Positions 39,396 to 50,881 of a stretch of DNA of 64,000 nt are shown here, piece after piece. Positions within the stretch are counted from its first letter, which is position 1; the number at the start of each line of letters is the position of its first letter. Source of the stretch: Acidimicrobiia bacterium. GTDB lineage: Bacteria; Actinomycetota; Acidimicrobiia; IMCC26256; JACDBD01. The stretch lies in NCBI GenBank assembly GCA_051002235.1, contig JBPCMN010000042.1:2903-66902 (forward strand), given 5' to 3'. The position numbers and the translations under genes were made by a program. The notes beneath the pieces were generated by a model, which searched no databases, was not told where the DNA came from, and was given only the letters and a program-made list of their open reading frames with translations.

Positions 39396-40493
39396 GTGAA
39401 GTTCCGTTGCGAGCGCGACACCCTCGCCGATGCCGTCGCCACCGCCCAGCGCGCGGTCGCGGCCCGGCCCGGGGCGCTTCCGGTGTTGTCGGGTCTGCGG
39501 CTAGGGCTCGGGGCCGACGGGGTGGAGCTGGTGGGCTCCGACCTCGAGCTCACGATTCGGGTCCAGGCGCCGGCCAACGTCGAGGGCGAGGGGAGCGCGG
39601 TCGTCCCTGCCCGGTTGTTGTCCGACATCGTGCGCAAGCTGGAGGCCGGTCAAGTCACGGTCGAGTTCGGTGACGAGGACGCGCGCATCGCAGGGGGCCG
39701 AGCCAACTTCGCGTTGCGGACGCTGCCGGCGTCCGACTTTCCGCGGCTTCCGGAGGTCGCGGGCGCCGGTGTCCGGGTCGAGGCAGGCGCGCTGGCGGAG
39801 GCCCTCCGACAGGTGGTGCCGGCGGCTTCCCGCGACGACGCCCGGCCGATCCTGACCGGAGTGCTGCTCACCGCGTCGGGCGAGGGCCTGCGGTTGGTGG
39901 CGACCGACTCCTACCGGCTCGCGGTCCGCGACCTCAAGGGAGTCACCCAGTTCCTCGAAGAAGGCCAGAAGGTGCTCGTGGCGGGGCGGGGACTCGCCGA
40001 GGTGCAGCGCCTCCTCGGCGGCGGTGAGATCGAAGTGGTCCTCGGCGACCGCGAGGTGGTGTTCCGGGTCGGCAAGACCGAGGTCACCGCCCGGCTCATC
40101 GAGGGCGACTTCCCCAACTACGAGCAGCTCATCCCGAGCGGGTACCCCAACCGGCTTACGGTCAGCCGGGATGTGCTCCACGCCGCGGTCGAGCGCGTCC
40201 GGCTCGTCGGTCAAGGTCGCGACACCGCGCCGATCCGGCTGGCGATGACGGCCGAGGGCCTGGAGCTCTCGGCGGTCGCCCAGGACGTCGGCGAGGCCCA
40301 CGAGGCGGTCGAGGCCAAGTACGAAGGCACCGACCTGACGGTGGCGTTCAACTCGCAGTTCCTGCTGGAGGGGATCGACGCCGCCGGCGCACCCGAGATC
40401 GTGATCGAGTCGATCGACCCGTTGAAGCCGGCCGTGCTGCGCGGCGACAACGCCGACTTCCTATACTTGTTGATGCCGGTCCGCATCTCCTGA
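39396..40493 (+). CDS. dnaN: DNA polymerase III beta sliding clamp
   Basis: MKFRCERDTLADAVATAQRAV... has the three-domain beta-clamp length (365 aa). SD GAGGGAGGA. Confidence 0.95.
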   Translation: MKFRCERDTLADAVATAQRAVAARPGALPVLSGLRLGLGADGVELVGSDLELTIRVQAPANVEGEGSAVVPARLLSDIVRKLEAGQVTVEFGDEDARIAGGRANFALRTLPASDFPRLPEVAGAGVRVEAGALAEALRQVVPAASRDDARPILTGVLLTASGEGLRLVATDSYRLAVRDLKGVTQFLEEGQKVLVAGRGLAEVQRLLGGGEIEVVLGDREVVFRVGKTEVTARLIEGDFPNYEQLIPSGYPNRLTVSRDVLHAAVERVRLVGQGRDTAPIRLAMTAEGLELSAVAQDVGEAHEAVEAKYEGTDLTVAFNSQFLLEGIDAAGAPEIVIESIDPLKPAVLRGDNADFLYLLMPVRIS

Positions 40494-40512: not shown

Positions 40513-41637
40513 GTGAGAGTCACCGAGCTGGCCCTCACCGACTTCCGTTGCTACCGCTCGGCCCACCTCGTCCCCGCCCCCGGCGTGACCGTGATCGTCG
40601 GGGCCAACGGCCAGGGCAAGACCAGCCTGCTCGAAGCGGTGGGATGGGCCGCGACCGCGCGGTCGTTCCGGCGCGTGCCGGACGCGGTGCTCGTGCGCGC
40701 CGGCTGCGATCAGGCGATCCTGCGCGCCGAAGTGGAGGATGACGGCCGGGCTCAACTGCTCGAGGCCGAGGTGCGCGCCCAGGGCCGCAACCGGGTCCGG
40801 CTCAACCGCCACCCGGTGGCGCGGACCCGCGACCTCCTGGGCCTGCTGCGGGTCACCGTGTTCGGGCCCGACGACCTCGAGCTGGTCAAGGGCGGCCCGG
40901 CGGCGCGGCGGGGCTATCTCGACGACCTGCTGGTGGCCATCACCCCCCGCTACGAAGCCGCCCGGTCCGACTTCGAGCGGGTGCTTCGGCAACGCAACGC
41001 GCTCCTCCGCCAGGGCGTCACCGGCGACGACGCGGAGCGGACCCTGGCGGTGTTCGACGACCAGCTCGTCGGCGCGGGCGGCGAGCTCGTCCGCGGCCGC
41101 CTCGGGCTGGTCGACCGGCTGACCGGGCCGATCGGCGCCGCCTACCAGTCCCTGGCGGGAGGCGCCGCCGAGGTCGGCGCCGCCTACGAGGCCGAGTGGG
41201 CGGAGGGGCCGGTCCCTCCCGGCGCGGATGCGCCCGCTCCCGACGAGGTGGAGGAGCTCCTCCGGGCTGCGCTCGTCGCGCGGCACCGCCAGGAGCGCGA
41301 CCGGGGCGTCACCCTGGTCGGGCCGCACCGGGACGAGTGGCGGCTGCACGTCGACGGGCTCGACGCCCGGGCTCACGCTTCCCAGGGCGAGCAGCGCACC
41401 CTGGCCCTCGCGCTGCGCCTGGCCGGTCACCGCGTGTGCACCGACCTCGTCGGCCGCGCCCCCGTCCTGCTCCTCGACGACGTGTTCAGCGAGCTCGATC
41501 CCCAGCGAGCGGAGGCGCTGGTCGCGCACCTGCCCGACGGTCAGTCCCTCCTCACGACCGCTTCGTCGGTCCCGAACGGGATCCGTCCCGAGCGTCGTCT
41601 CCGGGTCGGCGACGGTCGCGTCGAGGAGGACGAGTGA
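40513..41637 (+). CDS. recF: DNA replication and repair protein RecF
   Basis: Walker A GANGQGKTSLLEA, signature SQGEQRTLALALRLA, Walker B LLLDDVFSELD. Confidence 0.95.
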   Translation: MRVTELALTDFRCYRSAHLVPAPGVTVIVGANGQGKTSLLEAVGWAATARSFRRVPDAVLVRAGCDQAILRAEVEDDGRAQLLEAEVRAQGRNRVRLNRHPVARTRDLLGLLRVTVFGPDDLELVKGGPAARRGYLDDLLVAITPRYEAARSDFERVLRQRNALLRQGVTGDDAERTLAVFDDQLVGAGGELVRGRLGLVDRLTGPIGAAYQSLAGGAAEVGAAYEAEWAEGPVPPGADAPAPDEVEELLRAALVARHRQERDRGVTLVGPHRDEWRLHVDGLDARAHASQGEQRTLALALRLAGHRVCTDLVGRAPVLLLDDVFSELDPQRAEALVAHLPDGQSLLTTASSVPNGIRPERRLRVGDGRVEEDE

Positions 41638-42096: not shown

Positions 42097-45000
42097 GTGA
42101 ACGTCCCCCCGGGCGAGTCCTCCGGCCAGAGAAAAAGGCGTTCTCGCTTGGCTTACGCGGCAAAAGACATCACCGTTCTGAAGGGCCTGGAGCCGGTCCG
42201 CGAGCGCCCCGGGATGTACATCGGGTCCACCGGCCCGTCGGGTCTGCACCACCTCGTCTACGAGGTTGTGGACAACTCGATCGACGAGGCGATGGCGGGG
42301 TACTGCGACCGCATCGACGTGACACTGCTGGCCGACGGCGGCTGCCGGGTGACCGACAACGGCCGCGGGATCCCGGTCGACAACCACCGCGACTTCAAGA
42401 ACAAGTCCGCCGCCGAGGTGATCATGACCACCCTTCACGCCGGCGGGAAGTTCGGCGGTGAGGGCTACAAGATCTCCGGCGGCCTGCACGGCGTCGGCGT
42501 GTCGGTGGTCAACGCGCTCTCCGACAAGCTCGACCTCGAGATCCACCGCGACGGCGGTAAATGGGAGCAGCACTTCGCCAAGGGCGGGAAGCCCCAGGGC
42601 AAGCTGCAGAAGGTCGCGACCTCGAGGAAGAAGGGCACGACCGTCACCTTCTGGCCCGACCCCCGCGTCTTCGAGGAGACCGAGTTCCGGGCCCAGACCA
42701 TCCTCGAGCGCCTGCGCGAGATGGCGTTCCTCAACAAGGGCCTCGAGATCCGCTTCGTCGACGAGCGCCCGCGTCCGAGGCTCGAGCAGACCTACAAGTA
42801 CTCCGGCGGCGTCGTCGACTTCGTCAAGCACCTCAACGCGTCGAAGGACCCACTGTTCAAGCGGGTCATCGCGCTCGAGGAGTCCTCGGCGAGCGGCGAG
42901 GTCGAGATCGCGATGCAGTGGAACACCGGTTTCCACGAGGGCCTCCACTCGTTCGCCAACAACATCGCTACGACCGAGGGAGGCATGCACGAGGAGGGCT
43001 TCAAGAAGGCCCTCACCAACGCGGTGAACAAGTACGCCAAGGTCAAGGGGCTGGTGAAGGACAAAGACGTCCAGCTGCTCGGCGAGGACATCCGCGAGGG
43101 AATGACCGCGATCCTCTCGGTCAAGTTGCAGAACCCGCAGTTCGAGGGGCAGACGAAGTCGAAGCTCGGCAACACCGAGATGCGGTCGTTCGTCGAGAAG
43201 GCCACCAACGAGAAACTGGGGGATTGGCTCGAGGAGCACCCGCCCGAGGCGCGCCAGATCATGGTCAAGGCGACCCAGGCCGCCCGGGCGCGCATCGCCG
43301 CCCGCCAGGCCCGCGACCTCACCCGGCGCAAGTCCCTCCTCGACTCCTCGGCGATGCCAGGCAAGCTCGCCGACTGCTCGTCGAACGACCCGAGCGAGAC
43401 CGAGTTGTTCATCGTCGAGGGCGACAGCGCCGGCGGCAGCGCCAAGCGGGCGCGCGACCCGCGTATCCAGGCGATCCTCCCGATCCGGGGGAAGATCCTC
43501 AACGTCGAGCGTGCACGCATCGACAAGATGCTCAAGAACGAGGAGATCCAGGCGCTCATCACCGCCATCGGCACCGGCGTAGCCGAGGACTTCGACGGCG
43601 AGAAGGTCCGGTACCACAAGGTGATCGTGATGTCGGTCGAGGGTGACGAGCCCGTCCTCCTTACCGACGAAGAAGGCCACCTGGAGCTCGAGCCGATCGG
43701 TCGGGTAGTTGACGGCTGGCTCGCCGACGGGATCGACACCCCCGGCATCTCCGCGGTGAGCGTCGACAAGATCAGCAAGCGGTCGCGCGTGTCTCCGATG
43801 AAGAAGGTCATCCGCCACCACTACCGGGGCTGGATGCACACACTCAAGACCGCGTACGGCCGATCGATCTCCGTCACCGCCGGCCACTCGGTCTACGTCT
43901 ACGAAGCCGGACGCATCACCACCCGCCCGGTCGCCCAGCTCGGGATCGGGGATCTCGTCGTCGCCCCTCGAAGGCTTCCGCGCGCCGAGCATGAGATCAC
44001 CAGCCTCGATCTCTTGGAGCTCTTCGTCGTCAACGGGCTCGGGCGCGGCCTGCGGGTCGACGGCGAGTCCGTCCGCCGGCGAAACGCCGACAGAGTTGCG
44101 GCGCAATACCCCGCCGAGTTCCGCGTCGACGATCGGCGTATGCAGCTTCCCGTAGCGGAGTGGAGGCGGCTCGCGGCGCGGCGGCGGGCGCTGGGTATCA
44201 CCCAGCAGCAGATGGCCGAAGCGATCGGCCACCGCCAGGCCTGCACGGTCAGCGAGTTCGAGACCGGCCGAACGAGGCCGAGCCGGGCCGCCTTCCGCGC
44301 CTACCTCGCCGTCGTGGGTGAGGACATCCCGGAGGCGGCCTTGGAGGCTCCGTCACGACTCGAGCGCTGGACCGATGAATCCGACGGTTCACACAACGCG
44401 CGGTGGCGCCGCGCCGGGCACTCGTGCCGCATGGATGAGTTGACCGTGGACGACCTCGTCCTGCTCGATGGTGAGGTGGAGGTTGTCCCCCAAGCTCATC
44501 GCGACAGAGCGTTCGGGCGGCACCTCCCGATCACCGAGGAACTCTGCTACTTCCTCGGCTGGTACGCCGCCGAAGGAACTACTGCCCGTCGTTCGCAGGT
44601 GGCGCTGGCGCTGGGCGAGGAGGACGCTCGATACATCCCCTCGATCATCAGCGCTATTCAATCCGTGTTTGGCGAGAACCCCCGGCTGCACATCGATCGT
44701 CGGCACGCGCGCTCATGGAAGCTGTACTTCCATTCTCCGCTGGCGGCGCGCCTCGTCGTTGCTTTGGGGCTCGGCGGCCACGCCCACGAGAAGCGTGTGC
44801 CGAACCTCATGTTCAACGTCAGCACCAAGTGTCAGACCGCCTTCCTCGAGGGGCTCTATCTCGGGGACGGCTCGAAGGGGTGTCAAGAAGGACGAGTGGT
44901 GTTCTCGACGGTGGCAAGCGCCCTGGCTACCGGCATTCTGTACCTCCTTGGGCAACTGGGCATCACCGCTTCAAGGTTTGCGGCAGCGGTTCCGCCCACA

Positions 45001-45708
45001 AACAATTTGGCGTCGGCGCAGACGGTGTACACGGTCCAAGCGAGCGGGAAGGATCAGCTGCTCGAGCTCGAGAACGTCTGGCGACGGGCGCCGAATGCCG
45101 ACCGGATGCGGAAGTACGCGACGTCTGGCCGACGCGGGTGGTCGAGATGGGTGCCCATCAGCGACGATCTCATGGCGCTGCCGGTGCGCTCGAATGTCGC
45201 CCGTCCCTTCAATGGGGACGTCTACGACCTATCCGTGGCGGACGACGAGAACTTCGTGTGCGGTCATGGTGGCGGGGTGCTGGTAAAAAATACTGACGCT
45301 GATGTAGATGGCAGCCACATCCGGACGCTCCTACTGACGTTCTTCTTCCGTCAGCTCCAGAACTTGATCACGCAGCGCTGTATCTACATCGCGCAGCCCC
45401 CGCTCTACCGCGCCGACATCGGCAAGGAGCGCCACTACCTCAAGGACGACGCCGCGCTCCGAGCCTTCGAGGCCGACCACGAAGGGCGCAAGCTCGAAGT
45501 GATGCGGTTCAAGGGCCTGGGCGAGATGGACTGGGAAGAGCTCAAGGTCACGACCATGGACCCGGCGACGAGGACGCTCCTCCAGATCTCGGCGGAGGAC
45601 GCCGCCATCGCCGACGAGGTGTTCTCGAAGCTCATGGGCGAGGACGTCGAGACCCGCCGTCACTTCATTCAAGAGAACGCCAAGGACGTCCGCTTCATCG
45701 ACGCCTGA
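42097..45708 (+). CDS. gyrB: DNA gyrase subunit B, interrupted by a 553-aa intein (650 aa after splicing)
   Basis: GHKL ATPase (LHHLVYEVVDNSIDEA), Toprim (ELFIVEGDSAGGSA). The motif YHKVIVM | TDADVDGSHIRTLLLTFF is split by the insertion. Confidence 0.95.
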   Translation: MNVPPGESSGQRKRRSRLAYAAKDITVLKGLEPVRERPGMYIGSTGPSGLHHLVYEVVDNSIDEAMAGYCDRIDVTLLADGGCRVTDNGRGIPVDNHRDFKNKSAAEVIMTTLHAGGKFGGEGYKISGGLHGVGVSVVNALSDKLDLEIHRDGGKWEQHFAKGGKPQGKLQKVATSRKKGTTVTFWPDPRVFEETEFRAQTILERLREMAFLNKGLEIRFVDERPRPRLEQTYKYSGGVVDFVKHLNASKDPLFKRVIALEESSASGEVEIAMQWNTGFHEGLHSFANNIATTEGGMHEEGFKKALTNAVNKYAKVKGLVKDKDVQLLGEDIREGMTAILSVKLQNPQFEGQTKSKLGNTEMRSFVEKATNEKLGDWLEEHPPEARQIMVKATQAARARIAARQARDLTRRKSLLDSSAMPGKLADCSSNDPSETELFIVEGDSAGGSAKRARDPRIQAILPIRGKILNVERARIDKMLKNEEIQALITAIGTGVAEDFDGEKVRYHKVIVMSVEGDEPVLLTDEEGHLELEPIGRVVDGWLADGIDTPGISAVSVDKISKRSRVSPMKKVIRHHYRGWMHTLKTAYGRSISVTAGHSVYVYEAGRITTRPVAQLGIGDLVVAPRRLPRAEHEITSLDLLELFVVNGLGRGLRVDGESVRRRNADRVAAQYPAEFRVDDRRMQLPVAEWRRLAARRRALGITQQQMAEAIGHRQACTVSEFETGRTRPSRAAFRAYLAVVGEDIPEAALEAPSRLERWTDESDGSHNARWRRAGHSCRMDELTVDDLVLLDGEVEVVPQAHRDRAFGRHLPITEELCYFLGWYAAEGTTARRSQVALALGEEDARYIPSIISAIQSVFGENPRLHIDRRHARSWKLYFHSPLAARLVVALGLGGHAHEKRVPNLMFNVSTKCQTAFLEGLYLGDGSKGCQEGRVVFSTVASALATGILYLLGQLGITASRFAAAVPPTNNLASAQTVYTVQASGKDQLLELENVWRRAPNADRMRKYATSGRRGWSRWVPISDDLMALPVRSNVARPFNGDVYDLSVADDENFVCGHGGGVLVKNTDADVDGSHIRTLLLTFFFRQLQNLITQRCIYIAQPPLYRADIGKERHYLKDDAALRAFEADHEGRKLEVMRFKGLGEMDWEELKVTTMDPATRTLLQISAEDAAIADEVFSKLMGEDVETRRHFIQENAKDVRFIDA
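43633..45291 (+). mobile_element. GyrB intein with LAGLIDADG homing endonuclease and XRE-type HTH insert
   Basis: Block A SVEGDEPVLL, block B TAGH, LAGLIDADG motifs YFLGWYAAEGT and FLEGLYLGDGS, blocks F/G VYDLSVADDENFVCG...GVLVKN followed by T(+1). Confidence 0.85.
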
Positions 45709-45739
45709 GCGGGCGCGGAACACGAGGAGAATCACCGGC

Positions 45740-48208
45740 ATGCCGGACGACGGCGCACAGCAGACGCTGGGGAACGTCGAGCCCATCGAGCTTCAAGAGG
45801 AGATGGAGCGCTCGTTCCTCGACTACGCCGTCTCGGTCATCACCGCACGCGCCCTGCCCGACGCGCGTGACGGTCTCAAGCCGGTGCAACGCCGGATCCT
45901 GTACGGAATGTACGACCAAGGCCTGCGACCCGACCGGAAGCACAAGAAGTCGGCCTCGGCCGTCGGCGACGTCATGAGCAAGTACCACCCGCACGACAGC
46001 ACGGCCATCTACGACGCGCTGGCGCGCATGGCGCAGGACTTCTCGCTGCGAGAGCCCCTGGTCGACGGGCACGGGAACTTTGGCTCTCCCGACCCGAACG
46101 ACCGACCCGCGGCCGCGCGGTACACCGAAGCGCGGCTCGCGCCGCTGGCGATGGCGGTAGTAGGCGAGATCGACGAGGACACCGTCGACTTCGAGGACAC
46201 CTACGACGGCGAGAACACCGAGCCCTCGGTGCTGCCGGCCCGCTATCCCAACATGCTCGTCAACGGCGCCGGCGGCATCGCGGTCGGCATGGCCACCAAC
46301 ATCCCGCCCCACAACCTGGGCGAGGTGATCGACGCCGCCATCCACATGATCGACAACCCCGACGCCAAGCCCAAGGACCTGATGAACTTCGTGAAGGGCC
46401 CCGACTTCCCGACCGGCGCGCTGATCCTCGGCCGCAAGGGGATAGACGAGGCGTACAAGACCGGCCGCGGCTCCATCAAGATGCGCGCCGTCGCCGAGAT
46501 CGACGAGGGCGGCAAGCGCAACGAGATGCGCATCGTCGTCACAGAGGTCCCGTACCAGACGTCGGTCGAGGTGATCGGCCAGAAGATCGCCGAGCTCGTG
46601 AACGACCGCAAGATCGACGGTATCCGCGACGTGCGCAACGAGTCGTCGGGCGACACCACCAAGCTCGTCATCGAGCTCAAGCGCGACGCCAATCCGCAGA
46701 TCGTGCTGAACCAGCTCTACAAGCACACGCCGATGCAGGCGACCTTCTCGGCGCACATGCTCGCCCTGGTCGACGGCGTGCCCCGCCTGCTCTCACTCGA
46801 CCGGGCGATCGTCGTCTATGTCGCCCACCAGATCGAGGTCGTCACCCGCCGGACGCAGTACCGGCTCCGCAAGGCGCAGGAGCGCGAGCACATCCTCCAG
46901 GGCCTCGTCCGCGCCCTCGACATGATCGACGCGGTGATCGAGCTCATCCGGGGGGCGGCCGACGTCGACACCGCCCGCGCCGGGCTGATGGCCAAGCCGT
47001 TCGAGTTCACCGAGGTGCAGGCCAACTTCATCCTCGACATGCAGCTGCGCCGCCTCACCCAGCTCGAGGGTAGGAAGCTGCGCGACGACCTCGCCGAGAT
47101 CCAGGAGACAATCAAGGATCTCGAGTCGATTCTCAAGAGCAAGAAGAAGCTCCACACGGTCGTCAAGACGGAGCTCGGTGACATCCGCGACCAGTTCGCC
47201 ACCGAGCGGCGCACGAAGATCACGCGCGACACCGGCGACCTCGACGTCCTCGATCTCATCGACGACGAAGAGGTCGTGGTCGTGCTCTCGAAGAAGGGTT
47301 ACGTGAAGACGGTCGCGGCCGACTCGTTTCGGCGCCAGGGGCGCGGTGGGCGCGGGGTGGCGGCGGCGAAGCTGCGCGACGAGGATTATGTCGAGCACCT
47401 GCTCATCACGAGTGCCCACTCCTATCTGCTGTTCTTCTCCAACCGGGGCCGCGTCTACCGGCTGCGAGCCCATGAGATCCCGATGAAGGAGCGGACCGCG
47501 CGCGGCACCGCGATCGTGAACCTGCTCTCCCTCGGGGCCGAGGAGAAGATCCAGGCGATCATCGACACCCGGACATACGAGGACGGCGCCTATCTCTTCT
47601 TCGCGACGAAGAAGGGAATGGTCAAGAAGACCCGGATCACCGAATACGACTCGAGCATCCGCAGCGGCCTGAGGGCGATCAACCTCAACGCCGGCGACGA
47701 GCTCGTACGCGTGATCCAGACCACTGGGCGCAGCGACATCATGCTCGTGTCGCGCGAGGGCATGACGATCCGCTTCTCCGAAGGCGGTGTGCGCGCGATG
47801 GGGCGCGCGACCGCGGGCGTGCGGGGAATGAAGCTCAAGGACAAAGCCGATGCGGTCGTGGCGTGCTCCGTCGCCCGCAACGACGCCGTCATGCTGTTCG
47901 TGAGCTCGAGCGGTCACGGCAAGCGGACGAAGTTGAGCCTCTTCAAGTGCCAGAACCGGGGCGGAACGGGCGTCAGGGGCATGAAGATCACTGCCGCCCG
48001 GGGGGGCGTAGTCTCCGCCTTCACCGTGGGCCCGGACGACGAAATCTTGGTGATCTCGTCGGGCGGCAATATCATCCGCATGGAAGCCAAAGAGATCTCG
48101 GCCCAAGGGCGGGACGCGACCGGCGTTCGGGTGGCCCGCCTCGGCGATGGCCAATCCGTGGTGGCGGTGGCGCCCGTGCTCGAAGCCGATGACGGAGAGG
48201 ACACCTAG
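45740..48208 (+). CDS. gyrA: DNA gyrase subunit A
   Basis: [19 protein letters not shown], active-site [11 protein letters not shown]-terminal beta-pinwheel repeats. No intein. Confidence 0.95.
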
Positions 48209-48213
48209 CCCGC

Positions 48214-48849
48214 ATGGCGAGATCCCCCGGCGAGATGGACCCTCGCCCGACGCGACCGGTCGGGGCCGTGCCGCCCCCGGCCGAACGCGCCCCTGCGCCC
48301 GCGCCCGCACCCGAACCCGCGCCCGCGCCCGCGCCCGCACCCGAACCCGCGCCCGACCCGGACGGGGACTCGCGCCGCCCGCCGGCGCGCTCGCGCCAAC
48401 CGGTCAAGGCGGCGCCGCCGAAGCCGACCCGGGCGGACCGCAAGGCCGATCGCAACGCTCGTCGGGCGGCCAAGCCGGTCAAGCGCGAACGGCGGCTGCG
48501 TCACACGATCCAGAAGGTCGACCTCTGGTCGGTGATGAAGCTGTCGCTGTGCTTCTACCTCTGCGGGCTGGCGGTCACGCTCGTGGCGCTCGTCTCCCTC
48601 TGGCTCATCGCCGACGCCTTCGGCATCGTCTCCAACGTCGAGGAGTTCGTCGGTGACCTGCTGTCGTCGGAGGACTTCACCTTCCTATCGGGCGAGATGC
48701 TGCGAGGGGTGACGCTCGTCGGGCTGGTCGTCGTGATGCTCCAGGTCGTGGTCACGGTGATGTCGGCGGCGTTCTACAACCTGTTCGCGGAGCTGTTCGG
48801 CGGCATCGAGGTGACGGTCGTCGAGGAAGAGCCCGTCGCCCGTTCGTAG
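48214..48849 (+). CDS. DUF3566-like transmembrane protein (Rv0007 position)
   Basis: Pro/Ala-rich N-terminus, then IQKVDLWSVMKLSLCFYLCGLAVTLVALV...AAFYNLFAELFGGIEV. Directly after gyrA, as in mycobacteria. Confidence 0.75.
   Translation: MARSPGEMDPRPTRPVGAVPPPAERAPAPAPAPEPAPAPAPAPEPAPDPDGDSRRPPARSRQPVKAAPPKPTRADRKADRNARRAAKPVKRERRLRHTIQKVDLWSVMKLSLCFYLCGLAVTLVALVSLWLIADAFGIVSNVEEFVGDLLSSEDFTFLSGEMLRGVTLVGLVVVMLQVVVTVMSAAFYNLFAELFGGIEVTVVEEEPVARS
48295..48348 (+). repeat. in-frame tandem low-complexity repeat (PAPAPEP units)
   Basis: GCGCCCGCGCCCGCACCCGAACCC followed by GCGCCCGCGCCCGCGCCCGCACCCGAACCC. Coding, not CRISPR-like. Confidence 0.6.
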
Positions 48850-48900: not shown

Positions 48901-48974
48901 GGGGCTATAGCTCAGTCGGTTAGAGCGCATCCCTGATAAGGATGAGGTCGGTGGTTCGATTCCACCTAGCCCCA
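48901..48974 (+). tRNA. tRNA-Ile (anticodon GAT), no encoded CCA
   Basis: Acceptor GGGGCTA/TAGCCCC, anticodon stem CATCC/GGATG with loop CTGATAA, T arm GGTGG-TTCGATT-CCACC. Confidence 0.9.
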
Positions 48975-50807: not shown

Positions 50808-50881
50808 GGGGACGTAGCTCAGTTGGCTAGAGCACCTGCTTTGCAAGCAGGGGGTCGTGGGTTCGAGTCCCATCGTCTCCA
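50808..50881 (+). tRNA. tRNA-Ala (anticodon TGC), no encoded CCA
   Basis: Acceptor GGGGACG/CGTCTCC, anticodon stem CCTGC/GCAGG with loop TTTGCAA, T arm GTGGG-TTCGAGT-CCCAT. Confidence 0.9.

Follow-up and report, generated by a model that had tools for sequence, protein, structure and literature searches.

The gyrB gene of an Acidimicrobiia bacterium raises a simple question: why does its open reading frame (ORF) specify 1203 residues when a GyrB of about 650 would be expected, and what is the additional segment? The gene lies in a 64,000-nucleotide stretch (the window) of GenBank assembly GCA_051002235.1, contig JBPCMN010000042.1, and an earlier reading made from the sequence alone had placed a 553-residue intein at positions 43633-45291, in the Toprim motif of the protein. 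This assignment proves exact to the base, whether judged by translation, profiles, fold or relatives. We find that the insert is a class 1 intein with a Hint domain, a LAGLIDADG homing endonuclease and an XRE-type helix-turn-helix (HTH) domain, and that the window copy is a further member of a widespread, little-described family of GyrB inteins. It was probably acquired recently, as judged from sequence comparisons described below.

The segments on either side of the insert belong to GyrB, matching the NCBIfam gyrB equivalog with 893 bits over two stretches as well as Pfam HATPase_c, DNA_gyraseB, Toprim and DNA_gyraseB_C. The intein extends from Ser513 (SVEGDEPVLL) to Asn1065 (...GGGVLVKN) of the precursor and is followed by Thr1066 (TDADVDG), with junctions that read ...DFDGEKVRYHKVIVM ↓ SVEGDEPVLL... 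and ...ENFVCGHGGGVLVKN ↓ TDADVDGSHIRTLLLTFFF... in translation (arrows denote junctions or insertion points throughout). It splits the Pfam Toprim profile at position 62 of 96, the N-extein containing positions 1-62, just before the DxD acidic residues. Without the intein GyrB is 650 residues long from the GTG start and reads ...YHKVIVM-TDADVDG..., and the spliced sequence is collinear with intein-free relatives and aligns without gaps to solved GyrB structures (Mycobacterium and others) over the junction through ...RYHKVIVMTDADVDGSHI... (E 5e-63), such that removal does restore the Toprim motif as claimed. Unspliced GyrB cannot be active, because the insert comes between the DxDxD metal ligands of the Toprim domain and its Glu region; with the precursor inactive as a gyrase, splicing must therefore be efficient.

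Within the insert there are matches to Pfam Intein_splicing (E 1.2e-10, above the gathering score) and to NCBIfam intein_Nterm (residues 2-89, 34 bits with a cut-off of 24.5) and intein_Cterm (18.4 bits, cut-off 15.6), and all of the blocks named in the sequence-only reading (A, B, the two LAGLIDADG motifs, and F/G) are present (Table 1), the C-terminal ones including VYDLSVADDENF and VLVKN. An AlphaFold2 model built on 17 sequences (mean predicted local distance difference test score 90.6, predicted template modelling score 0.85) has a Hint fold with its two lobes split by the endonuclease. When the model is compared with the PDB using Foldseek, the highest-ranked structures are full endonuclease-bearing inteins, namely PI-TkoII (E 5e-32), TliVMA, PI-PfuI, PhoVMA and PI-SceI, followed by mini-inteins over the Hint part (root-mean-square deviation 1.6-3 Å), and then by the free LAGLIDADG enzymes I-DmoI and I-Tsp061I over the middle of the intein. 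The insertion of a non-intein domain is thus ruled out by both residues and fold. The class 1 residues are Ser1, the block B Thr-x-x-His, and the C-terminal Asn553 followed by Thr+1; the penultimate histidine of block G, which is common but not obligatory in class 1 inteins, is absent and replaced by Lys552. Membership of class 2 or class 3 was considered and is ruled out by the presence of Ser1, by Asp532 as the block F residue (76/76 in the family), and by the fold. Inteins with Ser1 and Thr+1 form a recognised cysteine-free subgroup of class 1 with its own Arg/Lys-His NX motif, which is needed for splicing (PMC10189870), and the window intein has Ser1, Thr+1 and an [Arg/Lys]-His NX motif before block B.

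The endonuclease matches Pfam LAGLIDADG_3 (31 bits with a cut-off of 22.5, E 3.2e-7), and a few helices separate it from the C-terminal Hint lobe. On its other side, between the N-terminal Hint lobe and the endonuclease, is the HTH domain, which matches Pfam HTH_31 (30.0 bits, cut-off 27) and HTH_3 (25.0 bits, cut-off 23), coincides with modelled helices at residues 174-186, 191-197, 203-210 and 218-228, and is kept in relatives in GyrB, TopA, phosphoglucomutase (PGM) and FEN1. Neither this domain nor the signs of recent horizontal acquisition had been mentioned in the sequence-only reading.

We consider it very probable that this is a functional class 1 intein of the mobile type, working through oxygen and not sulphur chemistry; splicing is predicted because the host gene is essential and the ORF intact, and because cultured strains have inteins of the same type, Lys variants included. 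One could propose instead that the insertion does not splice, this gyrB being a pseudogene or an assembly artefact with a functional copy elsewhere, given that a 64-kb window of a metagenome-assembled genome is all that is visible and that a break in similarity to a public twin locus close to the insertion site could reflect an assembly chimera. This twin (L086; GCA_013695115.1, JACDBD010000108.1) has three differences from window positions 43467-48266, a 4.8-kb segment containing the intein, the C-extein and gyrA, but 94 differences (21%) in the preceding 450 nucleotides (43014-43466), the break being 165 nucleotides upstream of the intein site. Within what is one population, the break is either the trace of a recombination event or the chimeric end of a contig; a long tract of co-conversion was considered as its cause and rejected, as near-identity runs through the whole of gyrA. 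We regard the non-splicing explanation as most improbable, in that nothing interrupts the 3.6-kb ORF and all of its splicing residues are conserved, gyrB occupies its place in a canonical dnaA-dnaN-recF-dciA-gyrB-gyrA origin cluster, an identical protein has been assembled independently from NCBI and JGI sources (JGI twin P0292), and isolates of Herpetosiphon, Planktothrix, Microseira and Calothrix have genomes with the same architecture.

We have examined the distribution of this intein by scanning one genome for each of 185,579 species, using a seven-sequence alignment of the endonuclease and C-terminal Hint part as the query, and identified 95 confirmed relatives. All 80 loci retrieved from these have the intein at the same position in GyrB, before (T/S/C)DADVDG, which we label site b, with a shared junction pattern of ...Y(H/Q)(K/R)xxx(M/L) ↓ SV(A/E)(G/P)(D/E)EP ... 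(H/K)N ↓ (T/S/C)DADVDG, and with 39-62% identity to the window intein over the region of the query. A word-indexed protein search gave 20 matches, 19 of them GyrB fragments with the same junctions and the other a topoisomerase VI A subunit, while an exhaustive HMMER search gave 2149 matches at E<1e-3. The hosts are Cyanobacteria (Planktothrix PCC 11201 and PCC 9631, Microseira wollei NIES-4236, Calothrix NIES-4105, Laspinema, Coleofasciculus, Snowella and others), Chloroflexota (four Herpetosiphon species, Ktedonobacteria and Anaerolineae), Acidobacteriota, and Actinomycetota including Acidimicrobiia and Nitriliruptorales, together with single genomes of Gammaproteobacteria, Desulfobacterales, Armatimonadota and Dormibacterota. 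Site-b inteins are thus abundant in public genomes. Phage contigs gave just two weak partial matches to the endonuclease (35% over 68 residues), with no sign of a phage carrier.

Conservation among the 76 full-length copies (480-560 residues) closely follows the expected catalytic positions. Ser1, Arg61, His62, His85, Asp532 and Asn553 are each invariant (76/76), Thr82 is present in 75, the acidic residues Glu314 and Asp412 of the two LAGLIDADG motifs are kept in 72 and 75 copies respectively, and Lys387, Arg388 and Pro390 of block D are nearly invariant. A metagenomic GyrB fragment (P0005), which ends in Lys-Asn and is followed by Cys+1, has lost both LAGLIDADG acidic residues (…YTAGG… and …LGHG…, giving AGG and GHG); its endonuclease is probably dead, with its splicing residues kept.

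The sequence-only reading had drawn attention to the junction residues as non-standard, and Ser1, the penultimate lysine and Thr+1 are indeed minority states among inteins generally, but at this site each is either predominant or frequent: Ser1 is universal in the 76 full-length copies, the +1 residue is Thr in 74 of 80 loci (Ser in five and Cys in one), and the penultimate residue is His in 64, Lys in 14, and Arg and Ala in one each (59, 15, 1 and 1 among the 76 full-length copies). The Lys variants occupy at least eight separate places in a distance tree of the inteins, and cultured strains such as Microseira wollei NIES-4236 are among them. We note that the lysine codon is AAA in 15 of 15 such variants (the window and loci L002, L003, L006, L010, L017, L019, L020, L023-L025, L027, L042, L066 and L075), usually in the context GCA-AAA-AAT, even in hosts where the GC content at third codon positions (GC3) is above 0.95; among the 12 lysine codons of the window intein AAA is used once, at Lys552. 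It is possible that recombination between intein copies has given these variants a C-terminal segment of common descent. Splicing without a penultimate histidine has long been known in other inteins (Chen et al. 2000 and the DnaE inteins, as cited in PMC4031507 and PMC5874633), and Lys552 is therefore no bar to class 1 membership.

The Ssp GyrB intein of Synechocystis, cited for comparison in the sequence-only reading, belongs to another insertion site about 73 residues upstream. This position, site a (DSAGG ↓ C...HN ↓ SAKQGR), is occupied together with site b in 21 of the 80 genes (L008, L010, L014, L016-L018, L023-L025, L028, L040, L042, L043, L045, L054, L056, L057, L059, L064, L070 and L071). 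The proteins P0044 and P0100 likewise carry two inteins, a Cys1 element at VVEGDSAGG ↓ C...FVHN ↓ SAKQARD and one of the site-b type (...M ↓ SVDGD...HN ↓ TDADVDG). The site-a inteins have Cys1, are 153-482 residues long and are unrelated to the site-b type, and the double-intein precursors reach about 1800 residues. We take the Ssp GyrB intein (CFSGDTL...GVFVHN) to be at site a, consistent with the site-a intein of L025, which starts with CFSGDTL. The two types thus share a host protein and its Toprim domain, but the Ssp type is inserted at DSAGG ↓ SAKQGR with Cys1 and Ser+1 and belongs to an unrelated sequence family, whereas the window intein is at VIVM ↓ TDADVDG. The Ssp GyrB type is widespread in cyanobacteria and has been used in biotechnology (PMC3620165), and the published haloarchaeal and cyanobacterial "gyrB" allele (PMC4071816) appears to be site a. 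The survey by Novikova et al. (PMC4760082) counts 33 GyrB inteins from bacteria, with Actinobacteria, Chloroflexi, Cyanobacteria and Proteobacteria as hosts; in a literature search exclusive of the site tables of that survey, we found no paper specifically on GyrB site b.

An InBase-derived list of inteins with Ser1 and Ser or Thr at +1 contains 58 inteins at 16 insertion sites, almost all archaeal or viral and none in GyrB (PMC10189870). The window intein resembles the cysteine-free NX-His inteins of Pasch et al. 2023 (PMC10189870) in Ser1/Thr+1, in the Arg/Lys-His pair upstream of block B and in the block B histidine, while a GyrB host and a penultimate lysine are not part of that description. 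Among known structures both the best sequence match (E 7.6e-22) and the best fold match (template modelling score 0.60) are to PI-TkoII/PI-PkoII, the Tko Pol-2 intein of Thermococcus kodakarensis (PDB 2cw7), which is on the InBase Ser1/(Ser,Thr)+1 list, has an NX motif in ...ALIRH..., and combines Hint, LAGLIDADG and extra domains, one of them described as HTH-like (PMC8966425). It differs in being archaeal and in residing in a family B DNA polymerase, its identity is about 19%, and window intein residues 131-298, which include the XRE-type HTH, are unaligned by sequence. TliVMA also has an HTH-like accessory domain on a LAGLIDADG intein, resembling the 434 repressor and changing the DNA sites that are cut (Beyer and Iwai 2022, PMC8966425); this domain is between the endonuclease and the C-terminal Hint lobe, unlike that in the window intein.

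Because HTH-like accessory domains of endonuclease-bearing inteins have already been described (PMC8966425), the role of the XRE-type domain is most likely, by analogy, an additional DNA contact in homing. A different view of the domain would be that the intein is domesticated or conditional, with splicing slowed or gated, for example through the change of His to Lys, so as to regulate the supply of gyrase, or with the excised HTH intein serving as a DNA-binding regulator. The catalytic motif of an essential enzyme is the kind of insertion site discussed for conditional splicing in one survey (PMC4760082), the XRE-type HTH, which passes the Pfam cut-offs, is a domain typical of repressors, and family members differ in having His, Lys, Arg or Ala as the penultimate residue. 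We nonetheless think regulation of this sort very unlikely: the splice junctions are without cysteines, hence the known redox switches are inapplicable, the HTH-like domains of endonuclease-bearing inteins act in target DNA recognition (PMC8966425), and a sporadic spread among close relatives suits a selfish element and not a conserved regulator.

Relatives of the site-b inteins are also present in other enzymes, always directly before a Thr/Ser-Asp or Ser-His active-site motif. Inteins with Ser1 and the Hint-HTH_3-LAGLIDADG design are found in TopA (P0057, P0071 and P0120; ...A ↓ SVDYEEP...HN ↓ TDPDREGE), in phosphoglucomutase/phosphomannomutase at the active-site TA ↓ SHNP (P0070 and P0081), and in FEN-1 (P0079; G ↓ SVDH...HN ↓ TDYNPGG), and the Top6A copy (P0020), which is without an HTH match, splits TOP6A-Spo11_Toprim before TDGDP. 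The inteins at the Toprim DxD of TopA and Top6A are the nearest relatives outside GyrB, sharing Ser1, an SVxxxEP N-terminus and an HN ↓ TD... or HN ↓ SD... C-terminus, but they differ in host enzyme and are 25-32% identical. In the Pfam Toprim profile the break falls at position 62 of 96 for GyrB and TopA alike, and by this sequence comparison the two insertion points are homologous sites in different enzymes. As a tentative and rather doubtful extension of these correlations, the window intein may represent a recent invasion by a member of a bacterial clade of cysteine-free inteins, large and so far undescribed (Ser1/Thr+1, NX-His, XRE-HTH plus LAGLIDADG), that has repeatedly moved between unrelated enzymes, landing just before (Thr/Ser)-Asp or Ser-His motifs (the Toprim DxD of GyrB, TopA and Top6A, FEN-1, and the phosphoserine of phosphoglucomutase), and in which the penultimate His has changed to Lys many times, always with AAA. 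Were this so, Lys-Asn would be a fully competent alternative for asparagine cyclisation in oxyester inteins, and the C-terminal segment might spread by recombination between intein copies.

Several observations suggest that the window copy arrived recently. In a survey of relatives, as the sequence-only reading had proposed, the intein is present in the 95 species genomes noted above, and none of the 120 best-scoring GyrB clusters among the matches listed has an intein-sized insert. These clusters, mostly from Acidimicrobiia metagenome bins, are 78-96% identical to the N-extein and 431-696 residues long, most of them 633-634; a 99% identical fragment is also among the listed clusters (P0185) and ends before the intein site. 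The composition of the intein is also distinct, with a GC3 of 0.81 (0.74-0.78 in its 3′ half) as compared with 0.94 in the N-extein, 0.89 in the C-extein and 0.92 in gyrA. Nearly all of the very high-GC hosts (extein GC3 of about 0.9 or more) have an intein GC3 that is 0.07-0.23 below that of the flanking gyrB (L001-L004, L015, L030, L046, L047, L060, L061, L069, L076 and L077), with hardly any difference between the two in low-GC hosts, the cyanobacterial ones included. Identity to the window intein is just 55-68% among its nearest sampled counterparts, so the donor is unsampled.

The DNA flanking the insertion site provides a further indication. The first six C-extein codons are ACT GAC GCT GAT GTA GAT, whereas the intein-free relatives L083-L085, at about 90% nucleotide identity, have ACC (GTC in L083) GAC GCC GAT/GAC GTC GAC. 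Codons ending in A or T account for five of these first six (P about 4e-6) and for seven of 25 (P about 5e-4) against a background of 5.9%, and nucleotide identity to the intein-free relatives is lowest in the 60 nucleotides before and the 120 nucleotides after the site, the dip before it being seen with L083 only. This run of codons suggests that DNA next to the site was co-converted when the intein homed in from a donor of lower GC content. The uninterrupted site is ...AAGATCATCGTGATG ↓ ACCGACGCCGATGTCGACGGC... in L084 and L085, with CTC ↓ GTC as the variant in L083, the closest intein-free relative, in whose protein (...RIVIL ↓ VDADVDG) the -1 residue is Leu and the +1 residue is Val, not a nucleophile that an intein could use. 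As L083 has Val and M. tuberculosis GyrB has Ala at +1, Thr+1 is not required by GyrB itself; in intein-bearing GyrB proteins the +1 residue is always a nucleophile (Thr, Ser or Cys).

Given a functional, mobile-type intein, we think it likely that the endonuclease of this copy is still active. It is probably active or was so recently, considering that Glu314, Asp412 and the block D lysine are all kept, and considering the intein-free relatives, the GC3 lag and the A/T-ending codons. Alternatively, this could be a true splicing intein with an inactive endonuclease, fixed as a vertical passenger, with compositional oddities that are not from recent homing. The intein tree, which groups largely by host phylum, the loss of catalytic acidic residues in some members such as P0005, and the near-identical copies in at least three assemblies of seemingly one population would all fit such a passenger. 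It is an unlikely explanation in our view, since the retained catalytic residues, the 120 closest listed clusters without an insert, the lag of intein GC3 behind the host gene, and A/T-ending codons that are absent in intein-free relatives and are what co-conversion leaves all speak for recent homing.

A number of considerations weigh against a recently acquired, splicing and mobile intein and should be kept in view. Because the deep intein tree mostly tracks host phyla, much of the family history is vertical. The absence from relatives rests on clusters below about 96% identity, and the lower intein GC3 could stem in part from something besides recent import. We infer splicing and DNA cleavage from sequence, and a second, intein-free gyrB beyond the 64-kb window is conceivable. 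No residue co-varies convincingly with the change from His to Lys (the best position, 70, gives 0.88 versus 0.39).

With the anatomy, all catalytic residues, the fold, one-site family membership, absence from the closest relatives listed and the compositional footprint of import established, the following sequence of events can be proposed. The Hint domain would move the Met512-Ser513 peptide bond onto the Ser1 hydroxyl in an N-O shift, assisted by Thr82/His85 and by His62 of the NX motif, after which the N-extein would be transesterified to the hydroxyl of Thr+1. Cyclisation of Asn553 would then free the intein, with Lys552 replacing the penultimate histidine as a hydrogen-bond or charge donor, and an O-to-N shift would leave Met and Thr joined by an ordinary peptide bond in an active GyrB of 633-650 residues. 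The released intein is predicted to act as a LAGLIDADG homing endonuclease, cutting intein-free gyrB alleles at ...GTGATCGTGATG ↓ ACCGACGCCGAC..., with the XRE-type HTH adding DNA contacts for homing; repair from an intein-bearing copy would spread the intein together with a short flanking stretch of extein.

Current understanding of inteins is unchanged by the window copy, but it does have practical and comparative implications. This gyrB is intact, and functional only after protein splicing, whereas gene callers split or mislabel such genes, several relatives being called from inside the intein; the gene of the public twin L086 is annotated in GenBank as 'helix-turn-helix domain-containing protein, partial'. 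The results point to a widespread bacterial cysteine-free family at a single GyrB site that is missing from the InBase-derived Ser1 list, and cysteine-free inteins are wanted for protein engineering under oxidising conditions (PMC10189870, PMC11923092). The natural series of His, Lys, Arg and Ala at the penultimate position in otherwise similar inteins offers a ready test of the role of that residue, and close relatives without the intein, the lag in composition and the brief tract of conversion together document homing fairly clearly.

Table 1. Positions of the gyrB intein, its parts and other features in the window
Feature	Position	Strand	Basis or remark
gyrB precursor ORF	42097..45708	+	1203 aa from GTG 42097
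N-extein, GyrB residues 1-512, ends ...RYHKVIVM	42097..43632	+	Pfam Toprim match residues 436-512
Intein, 553 aa (Ser1 ... Lys552-Asn553)	43633..45291	+	translation, profiles, fold
C-extein	45292..45708	+	Thr+1 (45292-45294), then Mg-binding DADVDG of Toprim domain
N-terminal Hint lobe (residues 1 to ~125)	43633..44007	+	NCBIfam intein_Nterm, conserved residues
Block A Ser1	43633-43635	+	
NX motif Arg61-His62 (VIRHHY, residues 60-63)	43813-43818	+	
Block B Thr82-x-x-His85 (TAGH, residues 82-85)	43876-43887	+	
XRE/Cro-C1-type helix-turn-helix (residues 178-234)	44164..44334	+	Pfam, model helices
LAGLIDADG homing endonuclease domain (residues ~298-472)	44524..45048	+	Pfam LAGLIDADG_3, Hom_end
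LAGLIDADG motif 1 LCYFLGWYAAEG (residues 304-315)	44542-44577	+	...YAAEG, acidic Glu314
Block D EKRVP	44788-44802	+	Lys387
LAGLIDADG motif 2 AFLEGLYLGDG (residues 403-413)	44839-44871	+	acidic Asp412
C-terminal Hint lobe (residues ~505-553)	45145..45291	+	NCBIfam intein_Cterm
Block F	45214-45255	+	Asp532
Block G GGVLVKN	45271-45291	+	Lys552 AAA 45286-45288, Asn553 45289-45291
Probable co-conversion tract	45292..45366	+	A/T-ending codons, identity dip
dnaA	37047-39152		origin cluster
dnaN	39396-40493		origin cluster
recF	40513-41637		origin cluster
gyrA, 822 aa	45740-48208		origin cluster
DnaB, 463 aa	7867-9258	minus	
tRNA genes, three	1830-1900, 48901-48974, 50808-50881	+	

The lengths of 1203 residues for the precursor and 650 for mature GyrB given in the sequence-only reading are correct for the ORF as listed, but the true start is probably TTG 42148 and not GTG 42097, giving a precursor of 1186 and a mature protein of 633 residues, since a purine-rich AGAAAAAGG stretch is present 9 nucleotides upstream and both the 633-residue relatives and the JGI twin gene call begin there. 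The intein coordinates are the same under either start. The exact 1203-residue protein is in GenBank as MGI8796416.1, "MAG: DNA gyrase subunit B [Acidimicrobiia bacterium]". As noted in the sequence-only reading, GyrA and DnaB of the window are without an intein.

A scan of the window against Rfam gave no family at gathering score beyond the three tRNA genes. The dciA gene of the origin cluster is a gene with a DciA domain. The dnaA ORF is listed as 701 residues, with the DnaA_N domain beginning only at residue 247; its true start is probably well downstream, or else the protein has a long and unusual N-terminal extension.

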